This document shows positions 37,685-54,072 of a stretch of DNA of 64,000 nucleotides, piece after piece; the first letter of the stretch is position 1; each line of letters begins with the position of its first letter. Source of the stretch: a virus (Duplodnaviria > Caudoviricetes); IMG/VR virus record IMGVR_UViG_3300031949_000028, positions 1,009-65,008 of that record. One strand, written 5' to 3'. Below the pieces are notes generated by a model. The model searched no databases. It was given only the letters and a program-made list of their open reading frames with translations, and was not told where the DNA came from. The translations under genes and the position numbers were made by a program.

Positions 37685-38089
37685 ATGAACATTAAGAGAT
37701 TCTTTCAAAGAACGATTGAGCCAAAGCACGTCATTCGTCAGGGCGATGTGTTGCTGGTCGAAGTGACGGATGACAGCGAGCGAAGCGTAGCCAATGCCAA
37801 AGGCCGCACTATCGACGGACTAGTACTCGCTTACGGCGAAGTGACTGGGCACGCGCACCGACTGAGCGCTCCCGTCGAGTTGCTCACCGCTCATGACGAC
37901 GCGGAGCTCAAGGACTTCGCGAACCGCGGCGGGGCGTCGCTACGCATCGTCTCGCGCAACGACGACGTGATCCTACGCCACGAGGAACACGCGCCATTGA
38001 TCTTGAAGAAAGGCAAGGTCTATGAGATTCGCCGACAGCGCGAGTACGACGCGACGACCGAGGCGAAAGAACGGCCGGTGTTCGACTGA
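37685..38089 (+). CDS. RQGDV-motif protein (partner of the DUF6745-like gene)
   Basis: IRQGDVLL..LAYGEVTGHAH..RHEEHAPL.L..G.VYEIRRQREY. Confidence 0.75.
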   Translation: MNIKRFFQRTIEPKHVIRQGDVLLVEVTDDSERSVANAKGRTIDGLVLAYGEVTGHAHRLSAPVELLTAHDDAELKDFANRGGASLRIVSRNDDVILRHEEHAPLILKKGKVYEIRRQREYDATTEAKERPVFD

Positions 38090-39039
38090 TGACAACCGAA
38101 CTCAATCCACTCGGCAGCCTTTTGGGGGCTGGCGTGAAGAACATTCGCAGACCGATACCGGACGTGCCGATCGAGTCGTCGTGGCAGTCGCAGTTAGCGG
38201 CGCGGCAGAATCAGTTGGGCATGTCGCTACAGCAGGCGCTCCAAAATCAACAGTGGCAGACCGTGGCGACTGCCTCGCCAGCATTGAATCGTGACTGGTT
38301 CAATTTGCGGCGTTTCACTCCTGGCTCGGGGTCTCCTGAGTTCAGCGGGCACGGCCACTATACGGACGAGAATCGCAGGTTGATCGAGCGCTCCGTGAGC
38401 CGTTGGTACGTCGAGCAGTACGGATTCAAGCATCCACCGATTCATTGGAGGTTGTCGGGAACGCCGGAAATGTTTCGTTGGTTGGCGAAGTGCGAATGGA
38501 AGCATGACGACGTAAGGGCGTTTCTCTATCGGCACCGAGTCATCGTGCTCGTCGCGCGCCCGCAGATGATGAAGTTCGATGACGATCGCGGGCGGCTGCA
38601 CTGTGCTGACGGTCCAGCGCTTCGTTGGCCGTCAGGACGCGAGGAATTCTACATTCACGGCGCTCATGTGCCGCGCTGGATCGTTGAGCATCCAGAATGG
38701 ACGCCCATCAAGCGGATCAAGGACGAGCGCAACGCAGAGGTTCGGCGGATGTTGATCGACGGCTATATTCGTTGTCACGGTCATGGGAAATTCATCGAGA
38801 AAGTCGGTGCCGTTCTCCTCAACGAGGATTCGGTCGGTAAGCTGTGGGGCGTGAAGGGTATGTTCTGGAGCGACTACCAGCACACAATCGCCGAAGTCCT
38901 GAACAAAACACCTGAGCCGGACGGTTCGTTCAAGACGTATCACATCATCTGCCCGCCCGGCATGAGCCGATGCAAAGAGGCGATTGCCTGGACGTTCAAC
39001 ATGAGCGAGAACGAGTACGAATTAGCAGCGGAAAGCTAA
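38089..39039 (+). CDS. DUF6745-like protein
   Basis: GRLHCADGPALRWPSG..FYIHG..VP..I..ERNAEVRR; EVLNKTPEPDGSFKTY..CPP..CKEAIAWTF. Confidence 0.7.
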   Translation: MTTELNPLGSLLGAGVKNIRRPIPDVPIESSWQSQLAARQNQLGMSLQQALQNQQWQTVATASPALNRDWFNLRRFTPGSGSPEFSGHGHYTDENRRLIERSVSRWYVEQYGFKHPPIHWRLSGTPEMFRWLAKCEWKHDDVRAFLYRHRVIVLVARPQMMKFDDDRGRLHCADGPALRWPSGREEFYIHGAHVPRWIVEHPEWTPIKRIKDERNAEVRRMLIDGYIRCHGHGKFIEKVGAVLLNEDSVGKLWGVKGMFWSDYQHTIAEVLNKTPEPDGSFKTYHIICPPGMSRCKEAIAWTFNMSENEYELAAES

Positions 39040-39914
39040 TGAGCGTCGCCAAGCGGGTTCCTTTAGCGGTCTATCAGCCGATCTGGGTCAAGGGTGAGGT
39101 TTACGATCACGCTTTCCAGAGACCTTCGGCGGAGCGCTACGAGCCGATTCGGGCATTGTGTGCGAAGTTCGAGCGGCCGTTCTCGGTGTTGGACATCGGA
39201 AGCAATTACGGGTACTTCGATGTTCGGCTGATGAACGACTTTCCCGAGTGCGTGTGCGTGCTCGTGGACGACAAGACGGTCGGGCCGGTGCTCCAGGCCA
39301 ACAACGTCATGGACCGTTCCGTGGTGCTCTCTAGGAAGGTCAGTGCCGAGGTTTTGGAGTCATTGTCCCGTAGTGAGCACTTCGATGTGGTGGTGGCTTT
39401 TTCGGTGCTGCATCACTTCGATGATCCCGCGCGGGCCTTCAACGCTCTTTTGAAGTTAGGCTCCTGGGCGCTCTTTGAGATTCCTGGGGAGGATGATGTC
39501 GGGGCGGCGAATCCTGAGCTTCATGCTGGGATTCGGAAACTCTTTGAGCGCTACCTGGAAGCGGGGTATTTCCCGAGCCATGTGTCGGAGTGCCGAAGGC
39601 CCTACTACGTGATCGAGAACGCTCCGTACTTGGTCGAGCAGTCGATCGATTGTGCGGACCGAGATGCACCGGCTTATCAGAGATACCGGATCGAGACTGA
39701 CTTTAAGCGCTGCGAGTTCGTGAAGGCCGATGGCGAGAGGCGTCCCTTCGTTCCGGGGATGAACCTGCACAACTTCCGAAGGTTAGGTGGAGGTTGGCCG
39801 ACCGAGGACTTGATCCAAAAGAGCCTGGAGGAGTTTCGCGGGCATCCGGACTTCAACCCGTGGAATTTCATCGTAGGCCGCGGTCTGACGCCGATCGATG
39901 CAGGAGCCAAGTAA
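39039..39914 (+). CDS. class I SAM-dependent methyltransferase-like protein
   Basis: VLDIGSNYGYF motif I; FDVVVAFSVLHHF. Confidence 0.75.
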   Translation: MSVAKRVPLAVYQPIWVKGEVYDHAFQRPSAERYEPIRALCAKFERPFSVLDIGSNYGYFDVRLMNDFPECVCVLVDDKTVGPVLQANNVMDRSVVLSRKVSAEVLESLSRSEHFDVVVAFSVLHHFDDPARAFNALLKLGSWALFEIPGEDDVGAANPELHAGIRKLFERYLEAGYFPSHVSECRRPYYVIENAPYLVEQSIDCADRDAPAYQRYRIETDFKRCEFVKADGERRPFVPGMNLHNFRRLGGGWPTEDLIQKSLEEFRGHPDFNPWNFIVGRGLTPIDAGAK

Positions 39915-39915
39915 C

Positions 39916-40032
39916 GTGCGCAAATGGTTGGAATGGTGGCCTCTCTTGGTGTTTGGCGTGTTCTTGATCGTAATGATCTCATTGGTTGTTAGTTTTGGAG
40001 TTTTGATTTGGCGAGTTCCGCTACCGACATGA
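39916..40032 (+). CDS. 38-aa membrane peptide
   Basis: MRKWLEWWPLLVFGVFLIVMISLVVSFGVLIWRVPLPT; ATGA-coupled to the next ORF. Confidence 0.5.
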   Translation: MRKWLEWWPLLVFGVFLIVMISLVVSFGVLIWRVPLPT

Positions 40033-40300
40033 ACCGTCGCGACGTATTCAAAGCTCTATTCGGCACGGCCGTTGCTGTTGCAGTCGGTCCTGCGTTCGTT
40101 TGGCGCGAATGGACGCTCTCCGAGATCATCGCTGAGACGTTGCGCAAGAACCAACAGCACTTGTTGCGAATATGACGGCGAACAATGCGGTTCTACGCAA
40201 GCTCATGGAACGCTATCCATACGTCGAGCGCAGCGTGACGATGGTAGCAACACCGCAGAACGCGCCGTATCTGTTCGGCCCGAACCCGCCAACGATCTAG
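40029..40300 (+). pseudogene. Tat-signal peptide fused to a capsid-N-terminus-like segment, broken by a -1 frameshift near 40160
   Basis: MNRRDVFKALFGTAVAVAVGPA then LSEIIAETLRKNQQH/LVANMTANNAVLRKLMER; frame 1 stops at 40175, the -1 frame at 40300. Confidence 0.55.
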
Positions 40301-40302
40301 CC

Positions 40303-40367
40303 ATGCCCCTATACGATTCACGTGCCACAAGTGTGGCGCGACGGGCGAGTACGTTTTGAAAGTATGA
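40303..40367 (+). pseudogene. FmdB-like zinc-ribbon minigene with a 1-nt deletion
   Basis: adding one T at about 40318 gives MPLYDFTCHKCGATGEYVLKV, ending in an ATGA overlap with gmd. Confidence 0.5.
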
Positions 40368-41302
40368 GAGCGCTAATCACGGGCATTGGAGGCCAGGACG
40401 GACACTACCTCTCTAAGCATTTATTGGGTTTGGGCTATCAGGTGTTTGGCGGTTCTCGCCGCTCTAGCCATGGTGTGTTGCCTGCCGGTGTGGAGGCGGT
40501 ATCCATGGAACTCCTCGAGTACGAGTCGATCCGCAGAGCGATCGGAAAAATAGCGCCGGATGAAATCTACAACCTGGGGGCTCAGAGCCATGTGGGGGAG
40601 AGTTTCGAGAGCCCGGTTTATACGGCAGATGTTAATCACCTGGGCGTCGCCAGGCTGCTGGAGTCGATCCGAGGCACGCGAATACGCCTCTATCAAGCGT
40701 CGACCTCTGAAATGTTCGGCGGCGGAACGGGACTTACTGAGACGAGTCCTTTTGCGCCACGAAGTCCGTATGCCGTGGCAAAGCTGGCTGCGCACAGCCT
40801 TTGCGGCGTTTACCGAAAAGCTCACGGGGTCAGAGTTTCCTGCGGAATCCTTTTCAATCACGAAAGCCCGTTGAGAAGCAAGGATTTCGTCACGAGGAAG
40901 ATTTGCTACCACGTCGCTCGTGGACTGCCATTCACTCTTGGGAACATCCAAGCGCGTAGGGATTGGGGCCACGCGGCGGACTACGTGAAGGCCATGCACC
41001 TAATGTTGCAACACGAGCCGGATGATTTCGTAATCGCGACGGGGGAGAGTCATTCGGTCGCTGAATTCTTAAGCGCGGCTTCGGAGTTCACCGAGAACCT
41101 CCCCATCCCTCGATATAGCGTCGCGTCCGACATGCGTCCCTGGGACGTGGACGAGCTTTCTGGTGATGCGTCAAAGGCTCGTGAGCGATTGGGTTGGGTT
41201 CCGGAGTACGACTTCGCCGCACTCGTTAAAGAAATGATGGCCTCTGATCTCAGGGCGGCCGGATGGGCTGAGAGTGTTGAATTGGCAAGACACGTAGCGT
41301 GA
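40364..41302 (+). CDS. gmd: GDP-mannose 4,6-dehydratase
   Basis: ALITGIGGQDGHYL, PDEIYNLGAQSHVGESF, LYQASTSEMFG, PRSPYAVAKL, GILFNHESPLR..FVTRKI. Confidence 0.95.
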   Translation: MRALITGIGGQDGHYLSKHLLGLGYQVFGGSRRSSHGVLPAGVEAVSMELLEYESIRRAIGKIAPDEIYNLGAQSHVGESFESPVYTADVNHLGVARLLESIRGTRIRLYQASTSEMFGGGTGLTETSPFAPRSPYAVAKLAAHSLCGVYRKAHGVRVSCGILFNHESPLRSKDFVTRKICYHVARGLPFTLGNIQARRDWGHAADYVKAMHLMLQHEPDDFVIATGESHSVAEFLSAASEFTENLPIPRYSVASDMRPWDVDELSGDASKARERLGWVPEYDFAALVKEMMASDLRAAGWAESVELARHVA

Positions 41303-41898
41303 AACAAGTCAACGGCGACTGGTGGCCTAGTCGCGACGAGACGTGTCATCGAGTTGCGTACGAGTTTTCGGGTTGTGATCTCGCCGTCAGGAAGTGCAGC
41401 AAGCGTGATCTAGTAATTCAGGCCGGCGGATGTGTCGGTGTCTGGCCGCGGTATTTGAAAACGATCTTCTCCCGCGTGCTCACCTTCGAGCCGTCAGAGG
41501 AGAACTTCGCTCTGATGACGCGCAATTTGTCTGGACTCCAGATCGAACAGACTTTAGGCGCATTGGGCGCTAAGCATGGACTATGCGCGATCAAAACGAA
41601 CAAAAGGAACTGCGGAGACGATCAGACTCGTCCTGGGGATGATGTTCGGGTGATCGCGATCGATGAGCTTCGGGTTGATCCCGATTTGATCTATCTCGAC
41701 ATCCAAGGGGATGAGTATCCGGCACTTCTCGGGGCCAGAGAAACTCTTGCGCGTTGTTCCCCGGTGGTCGGGATCGAGTTCGATCCGAAGTGCGCTCGTC
41801 GTCACGATGTGGACGCACGCGAGTGGTTGAAGGGTGAGGGTTATAGGGAAGTGGGTCAATACAAGCAGGACTGGATTTTCGCAAAGGTGAAACCATGA
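41299..41898 (+). CDS. FkbM-family methyltransferase
   Basis: VIQAGGCVGVWP, VLTFEPSEENF, LIYLDIQGDEYPALLGARETL..CSPVVGIE. Confidence 0.85.
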   Translation: MKQVNGDWWPSRDETCHRVAYEFSGCDLAVRKCSKRDLVIQAGGCVGVWPRYLKTIFSRVLTFEPSEENFALMTRNLSGLQIEQTLGALGAKHGLCAIKTNKRNCGDDQTRPGDDVRVIAIDELRVDPDLIYLDIQGDEYPALLGARETLARCSPVVGIEFDPKCARRHDVDAREWLKGEGYREVGQYKQDWIFAKVKP

Positions 41899-42266
41899 CG
41901 ATCAGAGTGATGACTGCCGGTTCTGTGAGCGCGAACTATCACGTTCACGTTCGCCGCAGCGATACCCCTGGTAACACGTCGGTGTCGGCTGGTTACGCCA
42001 ACGAGCGCACACTGTGTATTCCGGTGATGGTTCAAGATACCCGTATCACGGTGCTTGGCACGTTCGGATCAGGTTCAGCCTCCACCGTAGTAGCTCTAGA
42101 CATCGGTCCCAACGGCTCGGCGTACATCAACCTGTTCAGTATCTCAGCTCCGTTCACGACGACGATCCCGGTGCAAGTGGATCACGTCCTGAGGTTTAGA
42201 CATTCCTACACCTCCGCGGCAGTAGCAGGAGCGTTAGGCGCATCGGTCGATGCCTGGGTCGGCTAG
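41895..42266 (+). CDS. small beta-rich hypothetical protein
   Basis: coupled ORF before terL. Confidence 0.6.
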   Translation: MTIRVMTAGSVSANYHVHVRRSDTPGNTSVSAGYANERTLCIPVMVQDTRITVLGTFGSGSASTVVALDIGPNGSAYINLFSISAPFTTTIPVQVDHVLRFRHSYTSAAVAGALGASVDAWVG

Positions 42267-44967
42267 CGCGATCAGGCTGCCCTACGTCCCGCAGCCGCGC
42301 CAAAAGGTACTACACCAGGCTGTCGCTCGAGAGATTCTTTACGGCGGACAAGCCGGAGGCGGTAAGCTAGGAGTAAGCTACTGTTTTGATTGGATTTTTC
42401 AGAAGTATCCAAACATTCAACCGCTGGAAGCTCTTGCTAAGCTGTCTGAGGTTCCAGAAGAGATCAGGGCTAAAGATTCTAAAGTTCTAGGATGGGACGG
42501 TCGCTGGCTCAGTATCTCCGAAGTCACTCCCGGAACTCGGATCATGAATCCGGACGGGCAATTTCAAGAGGTCTTGCAGGTTCATTACAACGGCACCTTA
42601 CCGTGCTCTCGGATGCATTTTGAGGACGGTTCCTCAGTCGAATGTGGAAACGAGCATCTTTGGGCCTTCTGGGAGGCGCGGTGCAATTCGCGAAAAAAGT
42701 CCAGCAATGGTGAGAACCCGGTCCATCCTGGATTAGACCCGCGAACTTGGAATCAAAATTACATCACGAGAGCCAGAGTTAGGCCGACATCCTGGCTCGC
42801 TAGCGCCCTGTCGAAGAATCGAAGATTTCTTATCCCTATCGGCAACCGGCTTCAATTTACGGGGTTGACTCGTAGCAAGCCAGATCGTGCATACCTTTAT
42901 GGACTACTGATTGGCGATGGTTGTATCGCTACTCCAGGTACACATGGAGATATTTTTCTGGGTACAGCAGACCCAGAAATCCGAGACTATGCTTTGGGTC
43001 TTTCAGAACTTAAGCCGGTTTGCTCGGTTAGGCCCAAAGACGGATTCAATAGCATCAAGTTTAGTGACAAACGATCGTGGCTGTATGGATGGGCGGCTAA
43101 TTCTGGGCTACTAGGTAAATACTCATGGGAGAAGTCTTTCCCGCTGGGCTATCTAGCGGCCAGCGTTGAATTTCGCATTGCTCTCGCCCAAGGATTGTTC
43201 GACTCTGACGGAACGGCCGGAGACGAGAAGCGCGAGGTCTCGTATACCTCTACGAGCGAAACGTTAGCCAGGCAAGTTGCTGATCTTGTCCGCACACTCG
43301 GCTATATGGCGAAGGTTAGCTCCAGGAAGCCCCTATGCACAAATTCTCCTGGTGGACCGAAACGATGTCGTGAGGCATGGACTGTATTTGTACAAGGAAA
43401 TCATCTAGAGGATTTGTTCAGGCTCGAGCGCAAGCGAGAACGTGCCGTTGTCCTTGGAGAGTTCAACGGTGGAGTTTCGTGGCCTGGAAAACGTATTGAT
43501 CGTATTGAACCAATCGGAGACCACTACGGGATTTGCATAACTGTTAGCAACCCGAATGGGCTGTACGTTACGGATGGCTACAACACCACGCACAACAGTT
43601 TTGGGTTGCGATGGGACGCAATCGACTTCTGTTTGCATCTTCCGGGGTTCTTTGCAGGCATTTTTCGCAGAACTAACCCGGAGCTCGAAGAGAATCACAT
43701 CAGCTTTATTCGAGAAGAGTTAGCGGCTCTGTCTCAGGCGTTCAAGACGCACATCGGTAAGTACAACGAGACTCGCAAGCGCGTCGAGTTCGTGAACGGG
43801 TCGCACATTCGTTTCAAGCATTTGGAGCTTGAGAAAGACGCGCACGACATTCAGGGCTGGGAGCTGCATGGGGCCTACCCCGATGAAGCGGCTCTTATGG
43901 AGCCGGGGCTGCTCGCGTATATCCGTTCGCGCATTCGCTTGGGCAGGATGCGCAATTTGTGGGAGTCGATGGCACTACAAGACCCGGCGATGCTTCCCTA
44001 CATTGCGAGAGTTCCGAGATTCGTGTTGGGCAGTAACCCTGGAGGCCCGTCGCATCACTGGCTGAAAGAGAACTTCATCGATCCAGCGCCTCCGGAGACG
44101 ATGTTCGAGATCACCACTGGAAGTGGTCGCAAGCGCACGCGGATCTTCATCCCGGCGTCGATGCGGGATAACCAATACCTCGATGAGAGTTACGAGGATC
44201 AGTTTGACGATCTCCCGGAGTGGCAGAGAAAGCAGCTCAGGGACGGGGATTGGAACACGGTTCCCGGAGCATTCTTCGATTGTTGGTCGCCGCAAAACGT
44301 CATTCGTCCGTTCGCGGTGCCGGACTACTGGACTCGCATGTGGTCCTGCGACTGGGGCTTTAGACAGCCGTTTTGGATCGGAGAATGGGTTGTCTCTGAC
44401 GGCAACCCCGTCAAGAACATGGCTGGTGAGTGGGTCACGTTTCCAGAGGAATGCATGATCCTCGTTCGCGAATGGTACGGACGGGAGAAGGGCAACAAAG
44501 GGATTCGGATGCCGGCGTACGAAGTAGGTCGTGCGCTTCGCGATTGGGCGAAGGCAGATATCAAAGTCGCAGACCCTTCGATGTGGCGATCAGACTCAGG
44601 GCCCTCTCCTGCAGAACGCATGGCACAAGCCGGTATCTATTGGACGCAGGCCGATAACGAGCGTGTTCCTGGCTGGCAGGAAATGTACGCACGCATCAAG
44701 GACGGAATGTTGTTGTCGTTCGATACCTGCAGTCACTTTTTGAGGATCATCCCGACGTTGACGCACGATGAGAAGAATCCCGAGGACGTGCTCAAGAAAG
44801 GCGAGGATCATCCGGGCGATGGCACACGCTACGCCTGCATGGGCCGTCCGTACAAAAAAGATCGTCCGAAAAAGAAGCGTTCATGGCAAGAGGAAGCGGT
44901 GAGAGTTCCGACGTTCAACGAGATCATGAATAGACGAACGCCCGCTCGTGGGCCGGAAATTATTTAG
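42250..44967 (+). CDS. terL: terminase large subunit containing an intein
   Basis: ILYGGQAGGGK/S Walker A, YPDEAA Walker B, GSNPGG motif, DWG RNase-H domain, EDHPGDGTRY. Confidence 0.95.
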   Translation: MPGSASAIRLPYVPQPRQKVLHQAVAREILYGGQAGGGKLGVSYCFDWIFQKYPNIQPLEALAKLSEVPEEIRAKDSKVLGWDGRWLSISEVTPGTRIMNPDGQFQEVLQVHYNGTLPCSRMHFEDGSSVECGNEHLWAFWEARCNSRKKSSNGENPVHPGLDPRTWNQNYITRARVRPTSWLASALSKNRRFLIPIGNRLQFTGLTRSKPDRAYLYGLLIGDGCIATPGTHGDIFLGTADPEIRDYALGLSELKPVCSVRPKDGFNSIKFSDKRSWLYGWAANSGLLGKYSWEKSFPLGYLAASVEFRIALAQGLFDSDGTAGDEKREVSYTSTSETLARQVADLVRTLGYMAKVSSRKPLCTNSPGGPKRCREAWTVFVQGNHLEDLFRLERKRERAVVLGEFNGGVSWPGKRIDRIEPIGDHYGICITVSNPNGLYVTDGYNTTHNSFGLRWDAIDFCLHLPGFFAGIFRRTNPELEENHISFIREELAALSQAFKTHIGKYNETRKRVEFVNGSHIRFKHLELEKDAHDIQGWELHGAYPDEAALMEPGLLAYIRSRIRLGRMRNLWESMALQDPAMLPYIARVPRFVLGSNPGGPSHHWLKENFIDPAPPETMFEITTGSGRKRTRIFIPASMRDNQYLDESYEDQFDDLPEWQRKQLRDGDWNTVPGAFFDCWSPQNVIRPFAVPDYWTRMWSCDWGFRQPFWIGEWVVSDGNPVKNMAGEWVTFPEECMILVREWYGREKGNKGIRMPAYEVGRALRDWAKADIKVADPSMWRSDSGPSPAERMAQAGIYWTQADNERVPGWQEMYARIKDGMLLSFDTCSHFLRIIPTLTHDEKNPEDVLKKGEDHPGDGTRYACMGRPYKKDRPKKKRSWQEEAVRVPTFNEIMNRRTPARGPEII
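42367..43596 (+). mobile_element. intein with LAGLIDADG homing endonuclease (410 aa, class-3-like)
   Basis: lies between Walker A Lys and Ser; ends TTHN/S; LAGLIDADG motifs YLYGLLIGDGC and QGLFDSDG; block B HLW, block F CITV. Confidence 0.9.
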
Positions 44968-44977
44968 GGTTCATGTT

Positions 44978-45208
44978 ATGGATCACAAAATGATGGGCGA
45001 GATTCTCCGAAGAAAGCCTCACATGGAGAACGAAGAATTAAGAGTCGGAGATAGGGTATCGGTTAAGGAAGGATCGGATCATGACTCGATGACTAAAGGG
45101 AAAAGCGGAGTTATTGAGATTGTCAGTACTAACGCATTGGGGATTAAATTCGATGGAATGAAAGAAGTTCACAAGTGGTATGTGGCCGATGAGCTGACTA
45201 AAAAATAA
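44978..45208 (+). CDS. small SH3/KOW-like protein
   Basis: LRVGDRVSVK..GKSGVIEIV..LGIKFDG. Confidence 0.55.
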   Translation: MDHKMMGEILRRKPHMENEELRVGDRVSVKEGSDHDSMTKGKSGVIEIVSTNALGIKFDGMKEVHKWYVADELTKK

Positions 45209-47289
45209 TGGAAGTTAAAGAGTTCTGGCGTCAATACGAAGTTGCCGACAAAGAGCACAAGCGATGGGAGAAGCGTGCCGACAAGGTTCTGCAGCGCTAT
45301 CGGCTTGAGACCGAGGCAGGAGATCCCACGACTGAGCCCGCGTTCAACATTCTCTGGGCGAATACGGCGGTGTTGTTGCCGAGCTATTTCTCCCAGGTTC
45401 CGACTCCCGACATCACACGGCGCTACAAAGACGACGATCCGATCGGAGCGCAGGGCTCCAAGGTCATCGAGCGCTCTCTTGAGTTCGTGTTGGACGACGG
45501 GGATTTCTACGAGTTCGGCGAAGCGTCCGTTTTGGATTACCTGCTCCCCGGACGAACGGTATGCAAGGTCCGATACGTTCCGACCTACGCACGGGTTAGA
45601 CAAGCCGTTCCCGTGGAGGCTCGCGAGCAGTTGGGGCCGGATGGCGTACCTGTTGGGTTTCAATACTTCCACGACGACGAGGAGCTTGACCCCGCGGAGG
45701 TCAAGTTCAATGAAGGCGTTGCGTTCATCGAGGTCGAGGTCGAAGAGGTCGTCGATGAGCATGTCGATATCGATCGGTGGCCGTGGAAGAACTTTCGCCA
45801 CCAGAAAGTCAAGCGGTGGAAGGATTGCGGTTGGGTCGATTACATCTCGTATCTAGATAGCGATCAGCTCAAGCGCCTATTAGGTCGCAAGGCCAAGGGT
45901 GTTGAACTCACTGTAGACGGCACCGGGAACGAGGATGGCAAGGACGACGGATTCCAGGCAACTCATGCCGAGGTTCACGAGGTTTGGTTCGCGCGCGATC
46001 GCAAGGTCCGTGTCGCGGTCAAGGGGAATCTGAAGAACTGGCTCAAGGAGATCGCCGATCCTCTGAGGCTCGATAAGTTCTATCCGACGCCGCCTCCGTT
46101 GCTCGCGATCGACACGAACGATTCGTTGCAGCCTATTCCGCTCTTTACGTTCTACCAGCATCAGGCGAACGAGCTTGATCTGATTACCAAGCGGATCGCG
46201 AAGCTCATGCGGGCTTTGAAGCTCGCGGGTCTCTACGCTGGGTCTGAAAAGGACACGCTCAAGAAGCTGTTCGAGTCCGACGAAAACGAGATGATCGCGG
46301 TCGAGGACTGGAACGCGATCAAGTCTGCTGGTGGTATCAATGGCCTCGTAGACTGGTTGCCGATCGAGCAAGTCGGCAAGGTCCTCACGGCTCTGTTCCG
46401 AGAGCGTGAGCAGATCATCTCGCAAATCTTCGAGCTCACGGGCATCGCAGATATCGAACGCGGTTCGACCGATCCCAGGGAGACGAAGGGCTCACAGGTC
46501 ATCAAGGCGCAGTTCTCCAGCCGCCGCCAGCAGAATCCGAAGCAAGAAGTGGAGCGGTATTTCCGCGACGTGCTCAGGATTGCCGCGGAGGTCATGGCCG
46601 AGCACTTCTCGACCGACACGTTGCAGAGAATGACCGGGCTTCAAATTCCTCCGGAAGTCCGGCAGCTCTTGCAAGACGAGCTGCAGCGCCAGTACCGGAT
46701 CGACATCGAGACCGATTCGACGGTGGCTCCCGATCAAGAACGTGAGCAGGCGAATATGGCGAAGGCGCTGGAAGCCGTCACGAACTATGTAGCGACCCTA
46801 GCTCCGATGGTGCAGCAGGGCACGCTCGATCAGCGTGCGGCTATTCAGTTGCTCAAGGTGTACCTGCGCAAGTTCAAGTGGGGTCGTGAGATGGAAGAGA
46901 TGCTCGAGCAGATCGAGCGCGCCCCGCCCGAGGAAAGGCCCGACCCCGAAAAGCAGAGGATGGAATTCGAGGCGAAGCTCGAGCAGCAGAAGGTTCAATC
47001 TCAGCTACAGATTGAAGCTCAGAAAGCGCAGATGGATCTGCAAAAGCAGCAGTCCGAGATGCAGCTTCGGATGCAGGAGATGCAAGCGAACCTCAGAGAA
47101 ATCCAGATGCGCATGGAGCTCGATGCTCGCAAGTCGCAACAAGAAATGTCACAGGACGCGCAGCGCCATTCGCAGGAAATGATCCAGGACCAACAGGTCC
47201 ACGAACAAGAGCTGATTCAAGCGAGGCAGTTAGCCGATGCGAAAGCGTTACAGGTACGACGCGGAAACGAAAACCGTCCTTCCACTTGA
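45208..47289 (+). CDS. portal protein (P22-like, with C-terminal Gln-rich barrel)
   Basis: position after terL; FNILWANT..P; YRIDIETDST; long C-terminal coiled coil. Confidence 0.88.
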   Translation: MEVKEFWRQYEVADKEHKRWEKRADKVLQRYRLETEAGDPTTEPAFNILWANTAVLLPSYFSQVPTPDITRRYKDDDPIGAQGSKVIERSLEFVLDDGDFYEFGEASVLDYLLPGRTVCKVRYVPTYARVRQAVPVEAREQLGPDGVPVGFQYFHDDEELDPAEVKFNEGVAFIEVEVEEVVDEHVDIDRWPWKNFRHQKVKRWKDCGWVDYISYLDSDQLKRLLGRKAKGVELTVDGTGNEDGKDDGFQATHAEVHEVWFARDRKVRVAVKGNLKNWLKEIADPLRLDKFYPTPPPLLAIDTNDSLQPIPLFTFYQHQANELDLITKRIAKLMRALKLAGLYAGSEKDTLKKLFESDENEMIAVEDWNAIKSAGGINGLVDWLPIEQVGKVLTALFREREQIISQIFELTGIADIERGSTDPRETKGSQVIKAQFSSRRQQNPKQEVERYFRDVLRIAAEVMAEHFSTDTLQRMTGLQIPPEVRQLLQDELQRQYRIDIETDSTVAPDQEREQANMAKALEAVTNYVATLAPMVQQGTLDQRAAIQLLKVYLRKFKWGREMEEMLEQIERAPPEERPDPEKQRMEFEAKLEQQKVQSQLQIEAQKAQMDLQKQQSEMQLRMQEMQANLREIQMRMELDARKSQQEMSQDAQRHSQEMIQDQQVHEQELIQARQLADAKALQVRRGNENRPST

Positions 47290-47587
47290 GCGATGGCTCG
47301 CTAAGAACGGAGATCCATCGCGCGCCAAGCATCACGTCATCGGCGATATCGATCCCTACATGCCGGTGACGGGAGACATGCAGGGCAAGTGGATCACGTC
47401 GCGCAAACAGCATCGCGAGTTCTTGAAGCGTAACAATTTAGTCGAGGTCGGAAACGAGAAGGCGTACATGACCCGCCACGGCGGCATGTCGCCTGACAAT
47501 CCGAACCTCATCAGTGACGAGAAGCACGAGGAGCAGATATGCAGGAACCTGATGGAGAGCTTGGAGCAGTTGAAGAGTCGTCGGTAG
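47237..47587 (+). CDS. conserved phage protein between portal and scaffold
   Basis: DIDPY..V..G.WITSRKQHREFLKRNNLVEVGNE. Confidence 0.7.
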   Translation: MRKRYRYDAETKTVLPLERWLAKNGDPSRAKHHVIGDIDPYMPVTGDMQGKWITSRKQHREFLKRNNLVEVGNEKAYMTRHGGMSPDNPNLISDEKHEEQICRNLMESLEQLKSRR

Positions 47588-48627
47588 ATATCGACTGGCA
47601 GAAAGCTCTCCAAGAAAGTTTAGACGGCGACGGCGCCGCGAAGAAGGACGAGACTGCAGAGGTCAAAGCCGACGACGCAACCGAAGCCAAGAAAGAGACC
47701 CAACAGGGTCACGAGACCCCCATCGAGACCAAGGTCGAGGCCAAGGTCGAAACGGGGAACAAGTCGGGTGAAGAGTCCGCTAAGGATGCCCTACAGCCGC
47801 TTGCCAGTTGGTCGGAAGAGGTCAAGACGTATTTCCTCTCGCTGGATAAAACGGGCCAGCAGTTCCTTTTGGACAGGCACAAAGAGTTCGAGGGTGACTA
47901 CACGAAGAAAACCCAAGAAGTCGCGGATGTCCGAAAGCGATACGAACGGCTCGATGATGTGCTCAAGCCCTACGATGAAATCGCTCGCCGAACGGGTACT
48001 GATCTTGCACCGGCTGTAGCAACGGCGTTGCAGTATTACGTCGCCTTTCAGCGCGATCCCTTGTCGCTAATCAAGACACTCATCCAAGCGAACAAGCTCA
48101 CAGCCGAACAGCTAGGACTTGTGGAGGACACGACCGATCCGGCCCAAAGGGCGCTCACGGACCGTTTGGCTAACACCGAACGAACTCTCGCGAGCATGCA
48201 GCAGGGTGCATCCCAAGCCAATGTGACTCAGCTCGTCACTCGCGTGACCGAGTTCAAAGACGCGAAAGACGAGAAAGGCAATCCCAAGTACCCGTATTTC
48301 GATCGTGTACGAACGCTGATGGCTCCGATCGTCGATGCCGGCAAATCGCTAGAGGACTCCTACAAAGAGGCCGTCTGGGCGGTACCGGAATATCGACAGG
48401 AGATGGAGAAGTCGGCGCAAGTCGCTCGCGAAACCGCACACGCTGCGGCCGAGAAAGAACGAGAGAAGGAACGGTTAGCCAAAGCGGAAAAGGAACGACT
48501 CGAGAAATTGAAGAGTGCCAAAGCCGCCGAAACTCTACCGTCATCCGATACGGACAAAGGAAAGCAGAAAACCGAGTTCAAAGGATGGGCCAGCGCTTTG
48601 CAGGAAGAACTTTCATCAATGCAATAG
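47539..48627 (+). CDS. capsid scaffolding protein
   Basis: acidic, helical, directly upstream of the capsid gene. Confidence 0.75.
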   Translation: MQEPDGELGAVEESSVDIDWQKALQESLDGDGAAKKDETAEVKADDATEAKKETQQGHETPIETKVEAKVETGNKSGEESAKDALQPLASWSEEVKTYFLSLDKTGQQFLLDRHKEFEGDYTKKTQEVADVRKRYERLDDVLKPYDEIARRTGTDLAPAVATALQYYVAFQRDPLSLIKTLIQANKLTAEQLGLVEDTTDPAQRALTDRLANTERTLASMQQGASQANVTQLVTRVTEFKDAKDEKGNPKYPYFDRVRTLMAPIVDAGKSLEDSYKEAVWAVPEYRQEMEKSAQVARETAHAAAEKEREKERLAKAEKERLEKLKSAKAAETLPSSDTDKGKQKTEFKGWASALQEELSSMQ

Positions 48628-48638
48628 GAGCAAAGTAA

Positions 48639-50461
48639 ATGGCAAGTCCGAATCTTTCGGAGCTTGTTACAACGACTCTTCGCAAGCGTCAAGGGCAGTT
48701 GTCCGACAACGTTTCCAAGTCGAACGCATTGCTTTCGCGGGTCATGGCCCGCGGCAATCTCGATACGGTGACGGGTGGGCGGACGATAGTACGTGAACTC
48801 GAATACGCTGTGTGATTTCGGCCTCTAGCGGCGCGATCTGCTAGAGAATCAGCATAATTTGCTGGAAACCCCTTAGAGCTTCCAAGACCAAAGGGTGAAA
48901 CTGTGGAAGATTGGGCAATCAGCAGCCAAAGACATGTGTTTGACAGGTTAGCTTATACCATTGGTTTTTTTCTGGGTGATGGCTGTCTAACTTCATATCC
49001 GTTCAAGTCGTCGAGCAACGGAAGAACGTACTACAAGAACGATGTGGTATTTGTTTCTTCTGACTTGGAGTCTCTTGAAAAGGCTCATGAACAGATAGCA
49101 GACGTGTTCGGCAAGAGTTACGCGTTCGTAAGGCGCACTCTCAAATCCGGAACGCCGCACTGGAACTTCTGCGCTCACCGTAGGGACATCTTCGACTTCT
49201 TCGCAGTTAATACTGCGATGAGGAAGGAAATCCCTAAGTACTATTTTTCAGCAGAGGCTTCGGTACAGAAAGAGTTGATAGCGGGTCTGATGGACACGGA
49301 CGGGCATTGCACCAGAACAACGGGTGGCAGTGGACTTCCGCGTTGGCAGATCGGTTTTAGCAATGGCAATCTTGGTCTTGTGCAAGACGTGGCCTCCATT
49401 CTGCAGAAGCACAATGTTTCTGTTGGAGCGATCACCGAAGGCAGAAAGGCCGGGTATAAGTCAATGTGGATCATTCATCCAAATATCCGTCAGTACATCG
49501 ACAGAGGGTTTGGGTTTAGCGTACTGCGTAAGCAGCAACGCTTGAATGATTACGTCAGTCACGTGTCTGGCTCAGAGACTACAATGGCTGCACCCTTGAC
49601 ATAGGGTGAAGGTATAGTCCTCCCGTATCTGAAAATATACGGATTCAGGAAAATTCGACGTTTATGTACTATTCGGGCTATGAGAGCCTGAATATTTCGC
49701 CCTCAGACGTTTTTTCTGCCGCAGAGTACGATTGGAAGCAAGCAGCAGTTAACGTTTCGTGGTCTGGTCTCGAAGCTCGAATTCAAAACAGCGGTGACGC
49801 GGCGAGCATCAAGCTCGTTGCAGGCCGGATTAAGAATGCCGAGCGGACGATGCGCAACCAGATATCGATCGGCATCTACTCGGACGGGTCGGGAAGCGGC
49901 GGCAAGCAGATCACTGGGTTGCAGTCCCAGGTTGCTGATGCGCCCTCGACCGGAACTGTGGGCGGGATCAACCGTGCGAACTTCGCGTTCTTCCAGAATC
50001 AAACGGTCACGATCACGTCCACGGATAACACGTCCGAGCTCGCGGCGGACATGCGGACTCTCTGGTCTGCGTGCTCACGCGGGGTGGATAAGCCGGACCT
50101 TATCGTGGCGGGCGCTACTCTGTATGACCTCTTTTGGTCGGACATGCAGAGCATCCAACGGGTGACGCAAGCGGGCAGCGGGAGCAAGGGTTTTTCAGAA
50201 CTCGACTTTCGCGGCGTGCCGGTCGTGCTCGATGGAGGTCAGGCGACGGGATCGGCGATCGATTGGGGCGGCGGCATCTCGGCAACAAGACTTTATATGC
50301 TTAATACCGAATATATTTATTGGTCGGTACACAGCAAGACCAACATGGTCCCGGCTGAGGAGCGTATGTCTTTGAACCAAGACGCTACCGTAGTTCCGCT
50401 TCTGTGGGCAGGCAATCTCACGATGAGTAACGCCGGCCTTCAGGGCGTCATCCACACTTAA
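48639..50461 (+). CDS. major capsid protein, spliced (exons 48639-48809 and 49649-50461; 327 aa)
   Basis: joining gives MASPNLSELVTTTLRKR...GGRTIVRELEYA/ENSTFMYYSGYESLNISPSDVFSAAEYDWKQ, in frame. Confidence 0.88.
48810..49648 (+). mobile_element. group I self-splicing intron (839 nt)
   Basis: 5' exon ends in U; terminal omega-G; P (AATTTGCTGGAAA), Q (AATCAGCAG), R (TCAGAGACTACA), S (AAGGTATAGTCC); candidate IGS TTTCGGC at 48816-22. Confidence 0.9.
48903..49604 (+). CDS. intron-encoded LAGLIDADG homing endonuclease
   Basis: AYTIGFFLGDGC and LIAGLMDTDG motifs. Confidence 0.88.
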   Translation: MEDWAISSQRHVFDRLAYTIGFFLGDGCLTSYPFKSSSNGRTYYKNDVVFVSSDLESLEKAHEQIADVFGKSYAFVRRTLKSGTPHWNFCAHRRDIFDFFAVNTAMRKEIPKYYFSAEASVQKELIAGLMDTDGHCTRTTGGSGLPRWQIGFSNGNLGLVQDVASILQKHNVSVGAITEGRKAGYKSMWIIHPNIRQYIDRGFGFSVLRKQQRLNDYVSHVSGSETTMAAPLT

Positions 50462-50471
50462 GGAGACGACA

Positions 50472-50975
50472 ATGACTGACTCAGCATTGGGGCTCTTGGG
50501 GGTGGACTTGGACAACGTGTACACGTCCGCGGGGGAATTGCCGCATCAGCAGGGCGCTCCGGTTCGCACCAAGAATGGTGTGGCCGTGCTCGTCAAGGCT
50601 GGTTCGGCGATTCCGCAATACTCGTTGGTGGTCTATTCGCCTTCGAGTGCCGCGGCATCGGCGTCCGTGGTTGCCTTCCCGGCTTCTTTGACCAATGTGT
50701 CAACGCGACTCTTCGCGGTGGCGCAAACGTCGATCGCCAAAGACAGCTACGGATGGGTGCATACGGAGTGCGAGAAGGAGGGCCGGATTCTCTGCAACAC
50801 GGCAGAGACTGGAGTACCTCTGTATCTCTTGGGTAGCGGCGGACAAGTTGACGATGCGGTGACTTCGGGGAAGGCTCTACAAAATCTCTGGATTCTCGCA
50901 TCCGTCGCGGCGTCGCTCTCAGCGCCTCCGGCGATTTGGCGCAACATCGCGCTCGATCGCAATCAGTTGGCCTAG
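50472..50975 (+). CDS. putative capsid decoration protein
   Basis: immediately after the capsid gene, before a terminator; AQTSIAKDSYGWV. Confidence 0.55.
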   Translation: MTDSALGLLGVDLDNVYTSAGELPHQQGAPVRTKNGVAVLVKAGSAIPQYSLVVYSPSSAAASASVVAFPASLTNVSTRLFAVAQTSIAKDSYGWVHTECEKEGRILCNTAETGVPLYLLGSGGQVDDAVTSGKALQNLWILASVAASLSAPPAIWRNIALDRNQLA

Positions 50976-51000: not shown

Positions 51001-51029
51001 GGGGGCCAGAAATGGCCCCCTTTCTTTTT
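51001..51029 (+). terminator. intrinsic terminator
   Basis: GGGGGCCA-gaaa-TGGCCCCC followed by TTTCTTTTT. Confidence 0.85.
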
Positions 51030-51921
51030 GGAGGAGGAGCCTCTTTTGATTCCACAGAATCTTGCGCCATTGGTCGTGCTCGCTCGTTGCGTAGCAGACT
51101 TCCCGACGATTCGGGAGCATGTGAAGTACTGCTCTGGGCTTGGGTTGAAGTTCTTCACTCCGACGCCTACTCGTCACAACTTGGAAGCCGTATTGGTAGG
51201 GTCTGGTCCGTCCGTCAAAGACGAGATCAAGAACCTTGCCAAGAAGCGCCGTGATCCGAAGTTCATGTTCTTCGGCATCAAGGGCGGACATGATTTTTTG
51301 GTTAAGAACGACATTCGGCCGCACTTCGGAGTGGCGGTTGATCCGTTGGAGAGAATCCACCGCGAGAACTTCTTGGAGAAAGCGGCGGAGTGTAAATACT
51401 TTATCGCGTCACAGTGCCATCCGACGCTATTCGACATGCTGATCGCTCGGGGCGAGCAGGTCATCATCTGGCACTTGCTGACCGATAACTTGATGAAGTG
51501 GGCGCAGGAAGAAGGATCGCCCGTCTTTCGCCACTACATGATTCCCGGCGGCTCGACGTCGGGGCTTCGGACGATCGTTCTGGCTTACGCGATGGGCTTT
51601 CGCAAGTTCCATCTGTACGGCTACGACTCGTGTTTGTCAGCGACAGATCCGAAGAAGCCGCCGAACTTGAGAAAGATCAACGGTGAGCTTTGCGACGGTA
51701 AGGATGAAAAGGGCCGAGATAAGGCGATTAGCGTCTACGTCGCCGGTAAAGAGTTCAGAGCGGATCGTGCCATGGCTGCTCAAGCCACGGAGTTCCAAAC
51801 GCTCCTAAAGAGCATGTGGAAGAACGACGATCCGTTTCAGGTCAGGGGATACGGCAAGGGGATGATTCAGACGATCGTCCGGGAGCGCTACAAAGAGGGG
51901 GCTCCTGAGTGCTCGCTATAA
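51028..51921 (+). CDS. DUF115/MptE-like (Maf-type) sugar-transferase-like protein
   Basis: AVLVGSGPSV, RPHFGVAVDP, IPGGSTSGLRTIVLAYAMGFRKFHLYGYDS. Confidence 0.75.
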   Translation: MEEEPLLIPQNLAPLVVLARCVADFPTIREHVKYCSGLGLKFFTPTPTRHNLEAVLVGSGPSVKDEIKNLAKKRRDPKFMFFGIKGGHDFLVKNDIRPHFGVAVDPLERIHRENFLEKAAECKYFIASQCHPTLFDMLIARGEQVIIWHLLTDNLMKWAQEEGSPVFRHYMIPGGSTSGLRTIVLAYAMGFRKFHLYGYDSCLSATDPKKPPNLRKINGELCDGKDEKGRDKAISVYVAGKEFRADRAMAAQATEFQTLLKSMWKNDDPFQVRGYGKGMIQTIVRERYKEGAPECSL

Positions 51922-52583
51922 CAACGTTTCACCCCGACACGTTCAAGGCGTTCGCCCGAGATTGCGTTTTGCGCATGAGTCAACTATGGCCGGGCCCGAT
52001 CCGAGTTTACTTCGAGAGCTCGGCTCCTCCGGCGCTCGATGGGACGGGGGTCGAGTGCCGGCCTCTCAATTCTCCGGAACGCTCCGCGTTCTTGGCGCGA
52101 GAGATTCCAGATCGTAGGGGGTTCTTGTGGGACGCGAAGCGGTTTTGCCACAAGGTTTTCGCGCAGCTCGACGCGGCGGCAGAGGGTGAGCCGTTCTGGT
52201 GGATCGATGCCGATGTCGCGATCTTCCGCCGAGTTCCTGAGGAGCTCTTGGAGCAACATGAGCTCGTGACGTTCTTGGGGCGTGACACGTACACCGAAAC
52301 CGGATTGGTTGGCTTCAACCCGAAGCACCCCGAGTTCGCGGAGTTCATCTCGCGCTATCGCTCGATGTACACGGACGGAAAGATCCTTGATTTGCCAGGA
52401 TGGACCGATTGCCATGCGTTCGACGCGGCGCGTCAAGGCATGGGTCGAGACCTAACTCCGGATGGGAAGGGGTTTGACAATGTGATGGTGGAGTCTCCCT
52501 TTGGGCCGTACATGGCTCACTACAAAGGGCCGCTCAAGTTGGAGCTGTATCGACTAGGAGGAGCGAATGCAGTTAACGGTTAG
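51909..52583 (+). CDS. putative nucleotide-diphospho-sugar transferase
   Basis: KRFCHKVFAQ, WWIDADV (DxD), GWTDCHAFD. Confidence 0.7.
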   Translation: MLAITTFHPDTFKAFARDCVLRMSQLWPGPIRVYFESSAPPALDGTGVECRPLNSPERSAFLAREIPDRRGFLWDAKRFCHKVFAQLDAAAEGEPFWWIDADVAIFRRVPEELLEQHELVTFLGRDTYTETGLVGFNPKHPEFAEFISRYRSMYTDGKILDLPGWTDCHAFDAARQGMGRDLTPDGKGFDNVMVESPFGPYMAHYKGPLKLELYRLGGANAVNG

Positions 52584-52741
52584 CGAGATGTCAATCAGAC
52601 TGTGCCCTGATTGCTTCGCCGCATTTAGAAGTTGCGATAAATGCGCTATGTGCGGATCGGAGAGAGGGGCTGTTTGTTTTTGGATAGACGAATCGACTGA
52701 CCGTTTGTTTCAGTTGGTTAGCGACAAATCTGGAGGAGCCA

Positions 52742-53359
52742 GTGAGATTTCAGCAAATTCATGATTGGATCGAGACGCACAAACCGGAAACGATTCTGGA
52801 GACCGGGACTTGGAATGCGCAAAACGCAGTGCGGATGTTGAAGCAGGGGGCCAAGAGCTACATCGGGTTTGATCTGTGGGAGGACGGAGACGAAGTTCTC
52901 GATGAATGCGAGAACAACGTCAAGAAACGGGTCACGTTCCTGGAAGCCCAGACCGTGCTTCGGGATTTCACTGCGGAGCTCATCAAGGGCAATACCCGAG
53001 AGACGTTGCCGTACTACGTCACGGGGAAGAAACCGTTCGTGGACATGGCGCTCATCGACGGTGGGCATTCCAAGGGAACGATCAAGAACGATCTTCTGAA
53101 AATCCTCGAGATCATGAAGCCATCGGGCGTCATTTTCATCGACGACTACTACTTCGGCTGTACAGACGCGGGTATCGGCGCTCAGAGTCTCATGGGAGAG
53201 ATTCAGCTTCCGTACACCGTCCTACCGAAAGCGGATAAGACCAAGGGCGGGTATCTCGTGAAGCTCGTTCAGATCAACATGAACGAAGTTCCGAGACCGA
53301 ACGCTTGGGAAGTCCCTGAGGCTCAGGCGTGGAAGTTCGCGCCTGGTGAAGCTGCGTGA
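52742..53359 (+). CDS. class I SAM methyltransferase (Methyltransf_24-like)
   Basis: ILETGTWNA, ALIDGGHS, VIFIDDY. Confidence 0.8.
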   Translation: MRFQQIHDWIETHKPETILETGTWNAQNAVRMLKQGAKSYIGFDLWEDGDEVLDECENNVKKRVTFLEAQTVLRDFTAELIKGNTRETLPYYVTGKKPFVDMALIDGGHSKGTIKNDLLKILEIMKPSGVIFIDDYYFGCTDAGIGAQSLMGEIQLPYTVLPKADKTKGGYLVKLVQINMNEVPRPNAWEVPEAQAWKFAPGEAA

Positions 53360-54072
53360 ACATGCTAGTCGTGGCTATTGGTTACGACGTTAGGGAGTCG
53401 ATAACATTTCACGTTCTTGAGCAGTCGATCATCAATCGGACGAGCGTTCCAGTCGCGATCATCCCATTGGCTTCGCAGATGCTCAGAGACTTCGACGGGC
53501 AGAGAGACGGAACCAATAGCTTCATCTACTCGCGGTTCTTGGTGCCAGAGCTGATGGACTACCAGGGATGGGCTCTCTATATGGATTCCGACATGCTTCT
53601 TAGAGACGATCTCGCGAAGCTGTGGAATCTTCGTGACGACTCCAAGGCGGTGATGGTGGTCGAGCATGATTACCACACGAAGTACCGCCGGAAGCTGATC
53701 GGGACTCCGATGGAGTGCGATAACGCTGACTATCCGAAGAAGAATCACAGCAGCCTGATTCTTTGGAACTGCGGTCATCCAAGTAACAGGATCGTAAATC
53801 GGGAGTTTGCCCAGGAGTCTCCTGGGAGCGTCTTGCACCGGTTTCAATGGCTCAGGGACGAAGAGATTGGCTCGTTGTCGCTGGAGTGGAATTGGCTCTG
53901 TGGGGAATACCAGTTCAACGCAGAAGCCAAGAATGTTCACTTCACGATTGGCGCTCCGTGTTTTAGTCATTACGCGAAGTGTGACTACGCCGGCGAGTGG
54001 CACGCTATGAGTGACGAAGTTAACGACAGACTTGATATGAGAGAACTGTTATCAGATAGGAGGACAGCATGA
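53356..54072 (+). CDS. glycosyltransferase (GT-A fold, GT8-like)
   Basis: IGYDVRE, FIYSRFLVP, ALYMDSDML, KNHSSLILWNC, WNWL, VHFTIGAP. Confidence 0.85.
   Translation: MNMLVVAIGYDVRESITFHVLEQSIINRTSVPVAIIPLASQMLRDFDGQRDGTNSFIYSRFLVPELMDYQGWALYMDSDMLLRDDLAKLWNLRDDSKAVMVVEHDYHTKYRRKLIGTPMECDNADYPKKNHSSLILWNCGHPSNRIVNREFAQESPGSVLHRFQWLRDEEIGSLSLEWNWLCGEYQFNAEAKNVHFTIGAPCFSHYAKCDYAGEWHAMSDEVNDRLDMRELLSDRRTA

Follow-up and report, generated by a model that had tools for sequence, protein, structure and literature searches.

Positions 40029-40367 of the window (the whole stretch of DNA analysed here, which covers 64 kb of a 65,008-bp IMG/VR virus record with a CheckV completeness of 100%) probably represent a decaying fragment of a two-gene head-module cassette, which lies in a variable slot and from which no leader-arm fusion is made. 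The first gene of this cassette would consist of a twin-arginine-like leader joined to an old paralogue of the N-arm helix of the major capsid protein (MCP), and the second would be the beginning of the Zn-ribbon gene that stands next in line. Since the reading frame is broken in the DNA and the neighbouring gene is both truncated and frameshifted, the copy in the window is most likely a relic.

The fragment sits in a stretch of ~450 nt whose left neighbour is a SAM methyltransferase gene (38970-39914) and whose right neighbour is a GDP-mannose 4,6-dehydratase gene. Three short ORFs are found here (Table 1), which are chained by ATGA overlaps from a small hydrophobic ORF to ORF A and from ORF A to ORF B. 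The small hydrophobic ORF is the first gene in the variable slot. Its GTG start at 39916 is preceded by an AGGAG 9 nt upstream, its stop overlaps the start of ORF A, and its coding potential is positive in frame 1; searches of PHROGs, Pfam and NCBIfam returned no family match for it. ORF A, which has a database entry as a 48-aa protein (P0002), showed a coding potential of +13.8 in frame 0, and its 16 arm-matching residues start after W-R-E-W. The ATG of ORF B overlaps the ORF A stop, and its coding potential is positive in its own frame. A sequence-only reading of this DNA had proposed a fused gene at 40029-40300 that needs a shift at about 40160, and it had placed both correctly: ORF A is read in frame 0 and the arm continues in frame 2 from 40160.

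Table 1. Features of the variable slot and its right-hand neighbour, with the genuine capsid arm of the same phage
Feature	Position	Strand	Description
Small hydrophobic ORF	39916..40032	+	38 aa from GTG 39916; 44 aa if started at ATG 39898
ORF A	40029..40175	+	48 aa, frame 0; leader, first arm half, 4 out-of-frame codons, TGA
Twin-arginine-like leader	40029..40109	+	27 aa; N-R-R-D-V-F-K, Ala/Val/Gly core, P-A-F-V-W-R-E
Arm copy, first half	40113..40160	+	16 residues, frame 0; homologous to MCP positions 5-20
Frame break	40158..40162	+	CAC (His) 40158-40160 and CTT (Leu) 40160-40162 share one C
Arm copy, second half	40160..40213	+	18 residues, frame 2; homologous to MCP positions 21-38
ORF B	40172..40300	+	42 aa (P0123); last 14 arm residues and 28-residue tail; leaderless
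Zn_ribbon_8 5' stub	40303..40367	+	22 codons; own 1-nt deletion at 40317
GDP-mannose 4,6-dehydratase	40364..41302	+	Pfam GDP_Man_Dehyd, E 2e-91
MCP exon 1	48639..48812	+	58 aa, genuine N-arm; phrog_9953 positions 4-60, E 2e-14

The edges of the slot were seen in a comparison with the closest relative of the window phage (L002), whose portal is 67% identical. By blastn, homology to this relative picks up again exactly at the dehydratase ATG (40364), which marks the right edge. The slot (39915-40363) measures 449 nt in the window versus 123 unrelated nt in the relative (L002 953-1075). The relative's version of the slot holds an unrelated ORF of 65 aa. A megablast search with positions 38000-50600 of the window gave no match among phage genomes. 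Likewise, Rfam gave no hit over 39000-50600 at an E-value of 0.1, so the region is not explained by a known RNA element.

The 34-residue stretch that follows the leader is homologous to positions 5-38 of the Mx8/SU10-type MCP, and the MCP of the window phage is itself of the Mx8/Mx9/SU10 type (phrog_9953 / PF17236 SU10_MCP). When the two halves were joined, the peptide aligned to the N-terminus of the phage's own MCP with a BLOSUM62 local score of 73, which is significant against shuffled controls (mean 27.7, sd 4.4, maximum 50; n=2000). The same holds for an HMM built from 109 MCP relatives, which gave the joined peptide 20.1 bits over HMM positions 5-38 and its best shuffle 9.0 bits (n=3000). 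The similarity claimed by the earlier reading therefore withstood both comparisons. Across the 2169 segments that the six frames of the window yield, and with no frameshift assumed, an HMM of the N-arm only ranked the MCP first and the halves of the arm copy second and fourth. The two halves are colinear (HMM positions 6-21 and 21-38) and abut at 40160-40163, within 4 nt of each other.

A resemblance over no more than 34 residues could in principle arise by chance between two amphipathic helices, and each half singly was indeed weak in the six-frame window scan (E 0.06 and 0.66); PHROGs, Pfam and NCBIfam likewise returned nothing significant for the separate halves. We nevertheless consider the probability of coincidence to be negligible, as the joined peptide scored far beyond the shuffles by BLOSUM62 and by HMM, and independent members of the family match MCP N-termini alone, both in phage genomes and in PHROGs. 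Specifically, a tblastn search of 50,697 phage genomes with the intact member P0134 matched solely the N-termini of six MCP records, namely those of Mx8 (two records), Mx9, Bradyrhizobium ppBjS10J-1, Stenotrophomonas BUCT555 and one uncultured phage. Among 38,880 PHROGs, the top match of the same protein was the MCP family phrog_9953, at positions 7-43.

Where the earlier reading spoke of a copy of the major capsid N-terminus, homology is borne out by these scores and recent copying is contradicted by the DNA. The arm copy and the MCP arm share 50% DNA identity, with saturated third positions (50/68/32% identity over codon positions 1/2/3), a distribution which indicates that both halves of the arm copy diverged as coding sequence. 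In addition, the scores of the arm copy with other MCPs of the family (50-77) were as good as its score with the MCP of its own phage. These comparisons point to an old paralogue that was kept by selection and not to a fresh duplication. No alignment extended past HMM position 38, and the E-loop, P-domain and A-domain are absent from the arm copy. Judged from its sequence, the element in the window is an arm paralogue, with a product of at most 90 residues, and not a capsid protein. AlphaFold2 models were made of P0134 and of the MCP of locus L003, and the relevant parts of both were of low confidence, helical and nothing beyond that.

Joining the two halves of the arm copy requires a -1 frame change at 40158-40162, which amounts to a 1-nt deletion relative to the homologues. 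If this break were an assembly or sequencing error, the true gene would be an intact leader-arm gene of 90 codons, and a single 1-nt change does restore a residue-for-residue match to the homologues. An error is nevertheless very unlikely. The break is also present, at contig level, in a second assembly made with a different assembler: a 64.8-kb contig with a word depth of 18.6 in the Logan assembly of the same soil sample is identical to the window over 39800-40500 without any indel, a comparison that concerns contigs of the probable source sample and hence its dominant genotype only. No other public run was found to contain the stretch. Moreover, the site is not a homopolymer, and two more indels follow at most 160 nt downstream, in the stub and in its spacer. 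In total, 210 nt of the 40029-40367 segment contain three indels, of which two lie in the coding parts (one apiece) and the third in the spacer.

A second frame-broken copy was found at locus L017 (P0131; JGI contig Ga0326597_10293252, 1431-1766). Here, the arm frame is broken by a 2-nt insertion near position 1542, which comes after A-E-I-V-T-E, ~7 codons upstream of the position of the break in the window. Read through this insertion, the L017 copy scored 16.1 bits against the MCP arm. In the annotated product of this gene (111 aa), the residues beyond 37 are out-of-frame sequence. That two members each require a -1 change inside the arm-coding region could suggest that the full-length fusion is made by programmed -1 ribosomal frameshifting or by transcriptional slippage. 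We regard such recoding as extremely unlikely, since the two sites differ in where they lie and in the type of lesion (a 1-nt deletion versus a 2-nt insertion) and neither of them is slippery; as read from the sequence, the break in the window has no X XXY YYZ heptamer. The RNA downstream of this break folds no better than shuffled sequences (z -1.5), and the intact homologues use one frame, which means that the break is not common to them. Two lesions that differ in both site and kind argue for repeated decay rather than for recoding.

The segment downstream of ORF B is in line with decay of the window copy. The Zn-ribbon stub starts three bases past the ORF B stop and encodes M-P-L-Y-D followed, after its 1-nt deletion, by F-T-C-H-K-C-G-A-T-G, six further residues and a stop; its end coincides with the start of the dehydratase gene. 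An intact Zn_ribbon_8 (PF09723) head-module protein has two CxxC pairs and a C-terminal domain, of which the stub keeps the first CxxC alone. The order of leader gene and Zn-ribbon gene, as well as the junction between them (TAG CC(A) ATG), is the same in three other loci (L006, L010 and L017), and at the DNA level 52 of 77 aligned columns are identical between the stub and L010, ~7 sd above shuffled sequences.

Between portal and scaffold, the window also has an ORF of 116 aa (47237-47587) that by eye looks like a full Zn_ribbon_8 orthologue devoid of cysteines. Counterparts of its product were recognized by eye in L008, L010 and L006, and in L003, where the protein likewise lacks the zinc-binding cysteines. 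This ORF had no Pfam match, and a tblastn search with the Zn-ribbon protein of L010 missed it. Since the phage appears to have its own orthologue, identified by eye, at the usual place, the presence of the stub in the variable slot indicates that 40029-40367 is an extra, partial and foreign copy of the cassette.

The course of events that would account for this arrangement can be outlined as follows. The cassette fragment probably arrived by recombination with another phage; we infer this event, and also its direction and its timing, from the comparisons above. Later, one base would have been lost at 40158-40162, so that leader and second arm half came apart, and the Zn-ribbon gene would have been cut down to 22 codons with a 1-nt deletion of its own. 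The output of the window copy would then be at most a leader peptide of 48 aa and a leaderless peptide of 42 aa.

Two features of the window run contrary to this explanation. Firstly, the two halves retain a coding signal, each in its own frame. Secondly, the pieces overlap by ATGA in the manner of translationally coupled genes and could for that reason be expressed and useful. The split might accordingly be tolerated: the ATGA overlap would allow translation of ORF A as well as ORF B, and the leader peptide, at the least, would keep the function of the family. The ATGA chain from the hydrophobic ORF through ORF A to ORF B fits this idea, as do the positive coding potential in every frame concerned and the conservation of the leader in a family whose C-terminal parts vary freely. 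Against it, the adjoining Zn-ribbon stub shows that the segment is decaying, the sequence has no Shine-Dalgarno motif ahead of either ORF A or ORF B, and no homologue with the same split was found. We therefore give a tolerated split a low probability and prefer the decaying cassette fragment.

The leader itself resembles a twin-arginine signal. Its residues 2-8 (N-R-R-D-V-F-K) match the motif (S/T/N)-R-R-x-hydrophobic-hydrophobic, which is often followed by K, and the N, R and R of this motif are invariant in the 11 relatives described below. The Pfam TAT_signal model (PF10518) gave the window copy 12.1 bits, which is below its cut-off of 22.7, and the corresponding NCBIfam model (TIGR01409) gave no hit for the window leader. 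TAT_signal matched 8 of the 11 family members, all of them below the curated cut-off (best E 2.9e-4), and it was the sole Pfam family that recurred across the relatives. The Kyte-Doolittle maximum over 15-mers was 2.0 for the leader in the window, within values of 1.65-2.04, compatible with a moderately hydrophobic core, and G-P-A ahead of F-V-W could be a candidate signal-peptidase site. In the ESM Atlas, the nearest named clusters were Tat-signal proteins, with weak scores of 0.82-0.84 (all leads were below 0.9). Of the Tat-like signal followed by a capsid-arm stretch that the sequence-only reading described, the architecture is upheld, and the label 'Tat-like' denotes a resemblance only.

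The protein sequence of the leader (~27 residues) is conserved, its third codon positions being saturated, and the family consensus reads M-N-R-R, a hydrophobic core (A-V-A) and P-x-M-P-F-V-W-R-E. The phage lacks a TatA gene as well as a second ORF with an RR leader. Like Tat signal peptides, the family has N-R-R-x-hydrophobic-hydrophobic-K, a core of Ala, Val, Gly and Thr, and a Pro with small residues ahead of a possible cleavage site. Unlike in Tat signal peptides, the P-x-M-P-F-V-W-R-E tail is stricter than an ordinary c-region, and the passenger is a helical capsid piece of 40-80 residues rather than a cofactor enzyme. With its positive N-terminus, the leader would place the arm copy outside the cytoplasm, irrespective of whether it is cleaved or serves as an anchor. 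Such a location, away from capsid assembly, counts against simple anchoring of procapsids to the membrane, which had been among the roles first suggested for this element.

Intact relatives of the broken gene were found. The read-through peptide (P0001) served as query in an exhaustive HMMER search against 1.84 billion representatives, which recovered both halves from the window as well as proteins of 74-110 aa that span the break in one frame (P0124, E 2.7e-12; P0126; P0128; P0129). A profile search, which found 11 members, added P0130-P0135. In four proteins, all from metagenomes or uncultured phages and each on a contig shorter than 1.5 kb, leader and capsid arm are combined in one frame (P0124, P0126, P0128 and P0134). 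The leader-arm architecture noticed at the outset is thus shared by these intact one-frame homologues, and what the window holds in its place is a broken gene with a stub behind it.

Other searches returned little more. When the read-through peptide was submitted to a word-indexed protein search, ORF A of the window was the sole result, and a scan of viral contigs with ORF A alone found no relatives. With the family alignment as query, a metagenome scan yielded one contig that was already known and a scan of genome representatives yielded nothing. The sub-family is rare: it was seen in the window, in one other IMG/VR record and in one JGI metagenome contig, and was not found in species-representative genomes. 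Two further candidates, L015 and L016, were rejected as family members; they have generic RR-leader proteins of other phages, the parts of these loci that were fetched contain no phrog_9953 MCP, and the L016 leader protein has no similarity to other ORFs of its locus.

The C-terminal parts of the family vary, with seven copies bearing the arm and five bearing other sequence. Scores of the arm-bearing copies against the MCP HMM were 26.6 bits for P0134, 24.1 for P0124, 20.1 for the window, 16.1 for L017 and 14.1 for P0128, and were lowest for an upstream fragment in L005 (10.0) and for P0126 (7.5). Two of these seven copies are frame-broken, which suggests that the leader-arm gene is dispensable and prone to decay. 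As for the members with other C-terminal parts, those of P0129 and P0132 were unlike the MCPs of their own contigs. The C-terminal parts of P0130 (L005 103-408) and P0133 (from an ENA contig) are alike and by eye resemble cement or decoration proteins. One family member reached Pfam Phage_cement_2 at an E-value of 0.049, and P0130 and P0133 did not significantly match the post-MCP proteins of four loci; kinship of these C-terminal parts with cement proteins is at most hinted at.

Wherever its context was available, the family gene sits in the packaging/head module. In L010-L013 the gene order is portal, a 55-aa ORF, leader gene, Zn_ribbon_8, a Gp10-like gene, scaffold and MCP. The leader gene adjoins the scaffold gene and a phrog_9953 MCP in L008, comes after a possible small terminase gene in L007, and lies immediately 5' of a Zn-ribbon gene in L006 and L017. 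The 55-aa ORF that precedes the leader gene (L010 9837-10004; L017 ~1260-1430) looks by eye like an N-terminal fragment of a homing endonuclease of the HNH/AP2 type. Three family genes in tandem occupy positions 2-629 of the 882-nt contig L005: the end of an arm-bearing copy, P0130 with leader and another C-terminal part, and P0124 with leader and arm.

In the intact relatives, the product would most likely be a helical peptide that is targeted by the Tat or the Sec route and is either exported or signal-anchored. By homology to the coat N-arm, such a product could engage the partner of the MCP arm. Like the N-arms of HK97-fold MCPs, with which it shares homology at positions 5-38, the arm copy is predicted to be helical; unlike these MCPs, it comprises the arm only, stands behind a leader and, in the window, is split over two frames. 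By curated criteria the window element belongs to neither the Tat-signal nor the capsid family.

Periplasmic hydrogenases are an example of the Tat 'hitch-hiker' route, in which the small subunit takes a partner without a signal across. A more far-reaching reading of the leader-arm family is that its intact members send or anchor a working, scaffold-binding copy of the arm by way of the Tat route, the window copy being a fossil of such a gene. The arm copy would then bind the scaffold or coat protein of its own phage or of a competitor, with assembly control, exclusion of relatives or carriage of a folded partner across the membrane as the outcome, and further members may do likewise with different pieces of the virion. 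Under this reading, the fossil would show that the leader-arm gene is easily lost and that it moves in one cassette with the Zn-ribbon gene. We consider it rather unlikely that the family works in this manner.

In P22, the N-arm of the gp5 coat protein is a helix that is bound in the procapsid by the C-terminal helix-turn-helix of the scaffolding protein (PMC9965877). The nearest functional analogy that can be named may be CpmB of SaPI1, a small helical protein that competes with the scaffolding protein of 80alpha for the capsid protein (PMC5644958). Like CpmB, the leader-arm protein is small and helical, resembles an element of the coat-scaffold interface and is encoded by an accessory gene. 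CpmB differs in that it is a satellite-encoded cytoplasmic protein and imitates the scaffold side; the leader-arm protein copies the coat side, has an export-type leader and belongs to the head module of the phage itself.

Some further observations concern the head genes of the window phage. The MCP gene is interrupted (48639-50461): exon 1 (58 aa) stops at 48813, a LAGLIDADG ORF (Pfam LAGLIDADG_3) lies inside the gene at 48903-49604, and the remaining 265 aa are encoded from 49664 to 50461. The MCP of the relative L003 is uninterrupted and has 326 aa. A search of the MCP region with Rfam at an E-value of 0.1 found no group I intron. The large terminase (42250-44967) is 905 aa long and contains a LAGLIDADG_3 domain (residues 308-359); since the terminases of L002 and L003 have 489 aa, that of the window phage probably contains an intein of ~400 residues. 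Sugar-nucleotide and methyltransferase genes (GDP-mannose dehydratase, FkbM-like and MptE/Maf-like) flank the head genes at 38970-41898 and 51028-54072, and the more distant relatives L008 and L010 have an MptE-like methyltransferase gene after the MCP region. The position of these genes around the head genes hints at glycan modification of the virion.

In summary, the decaying cassette fragment in the window has consequences for annotation, as the region is better labelled as a pseudogene fragment than as two hypothetical proteins. The intact family, in which a leader is combined with a piece of the capsid, appears to be undescribed; keyword searches of open-access literature, which were not directed at precisely this architecture, turned up no description of export-tagged or membrane-targeted capsid fragments. 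The window shows the leader gene moving together with the adjoining Zn-ribbon gene. Should the intact proteins prove to bind scaffold or coat, they would constitute a novel class of factors that modulate assembly or act in exclusion, and would provide a natural example of a capsid-targeting tag.
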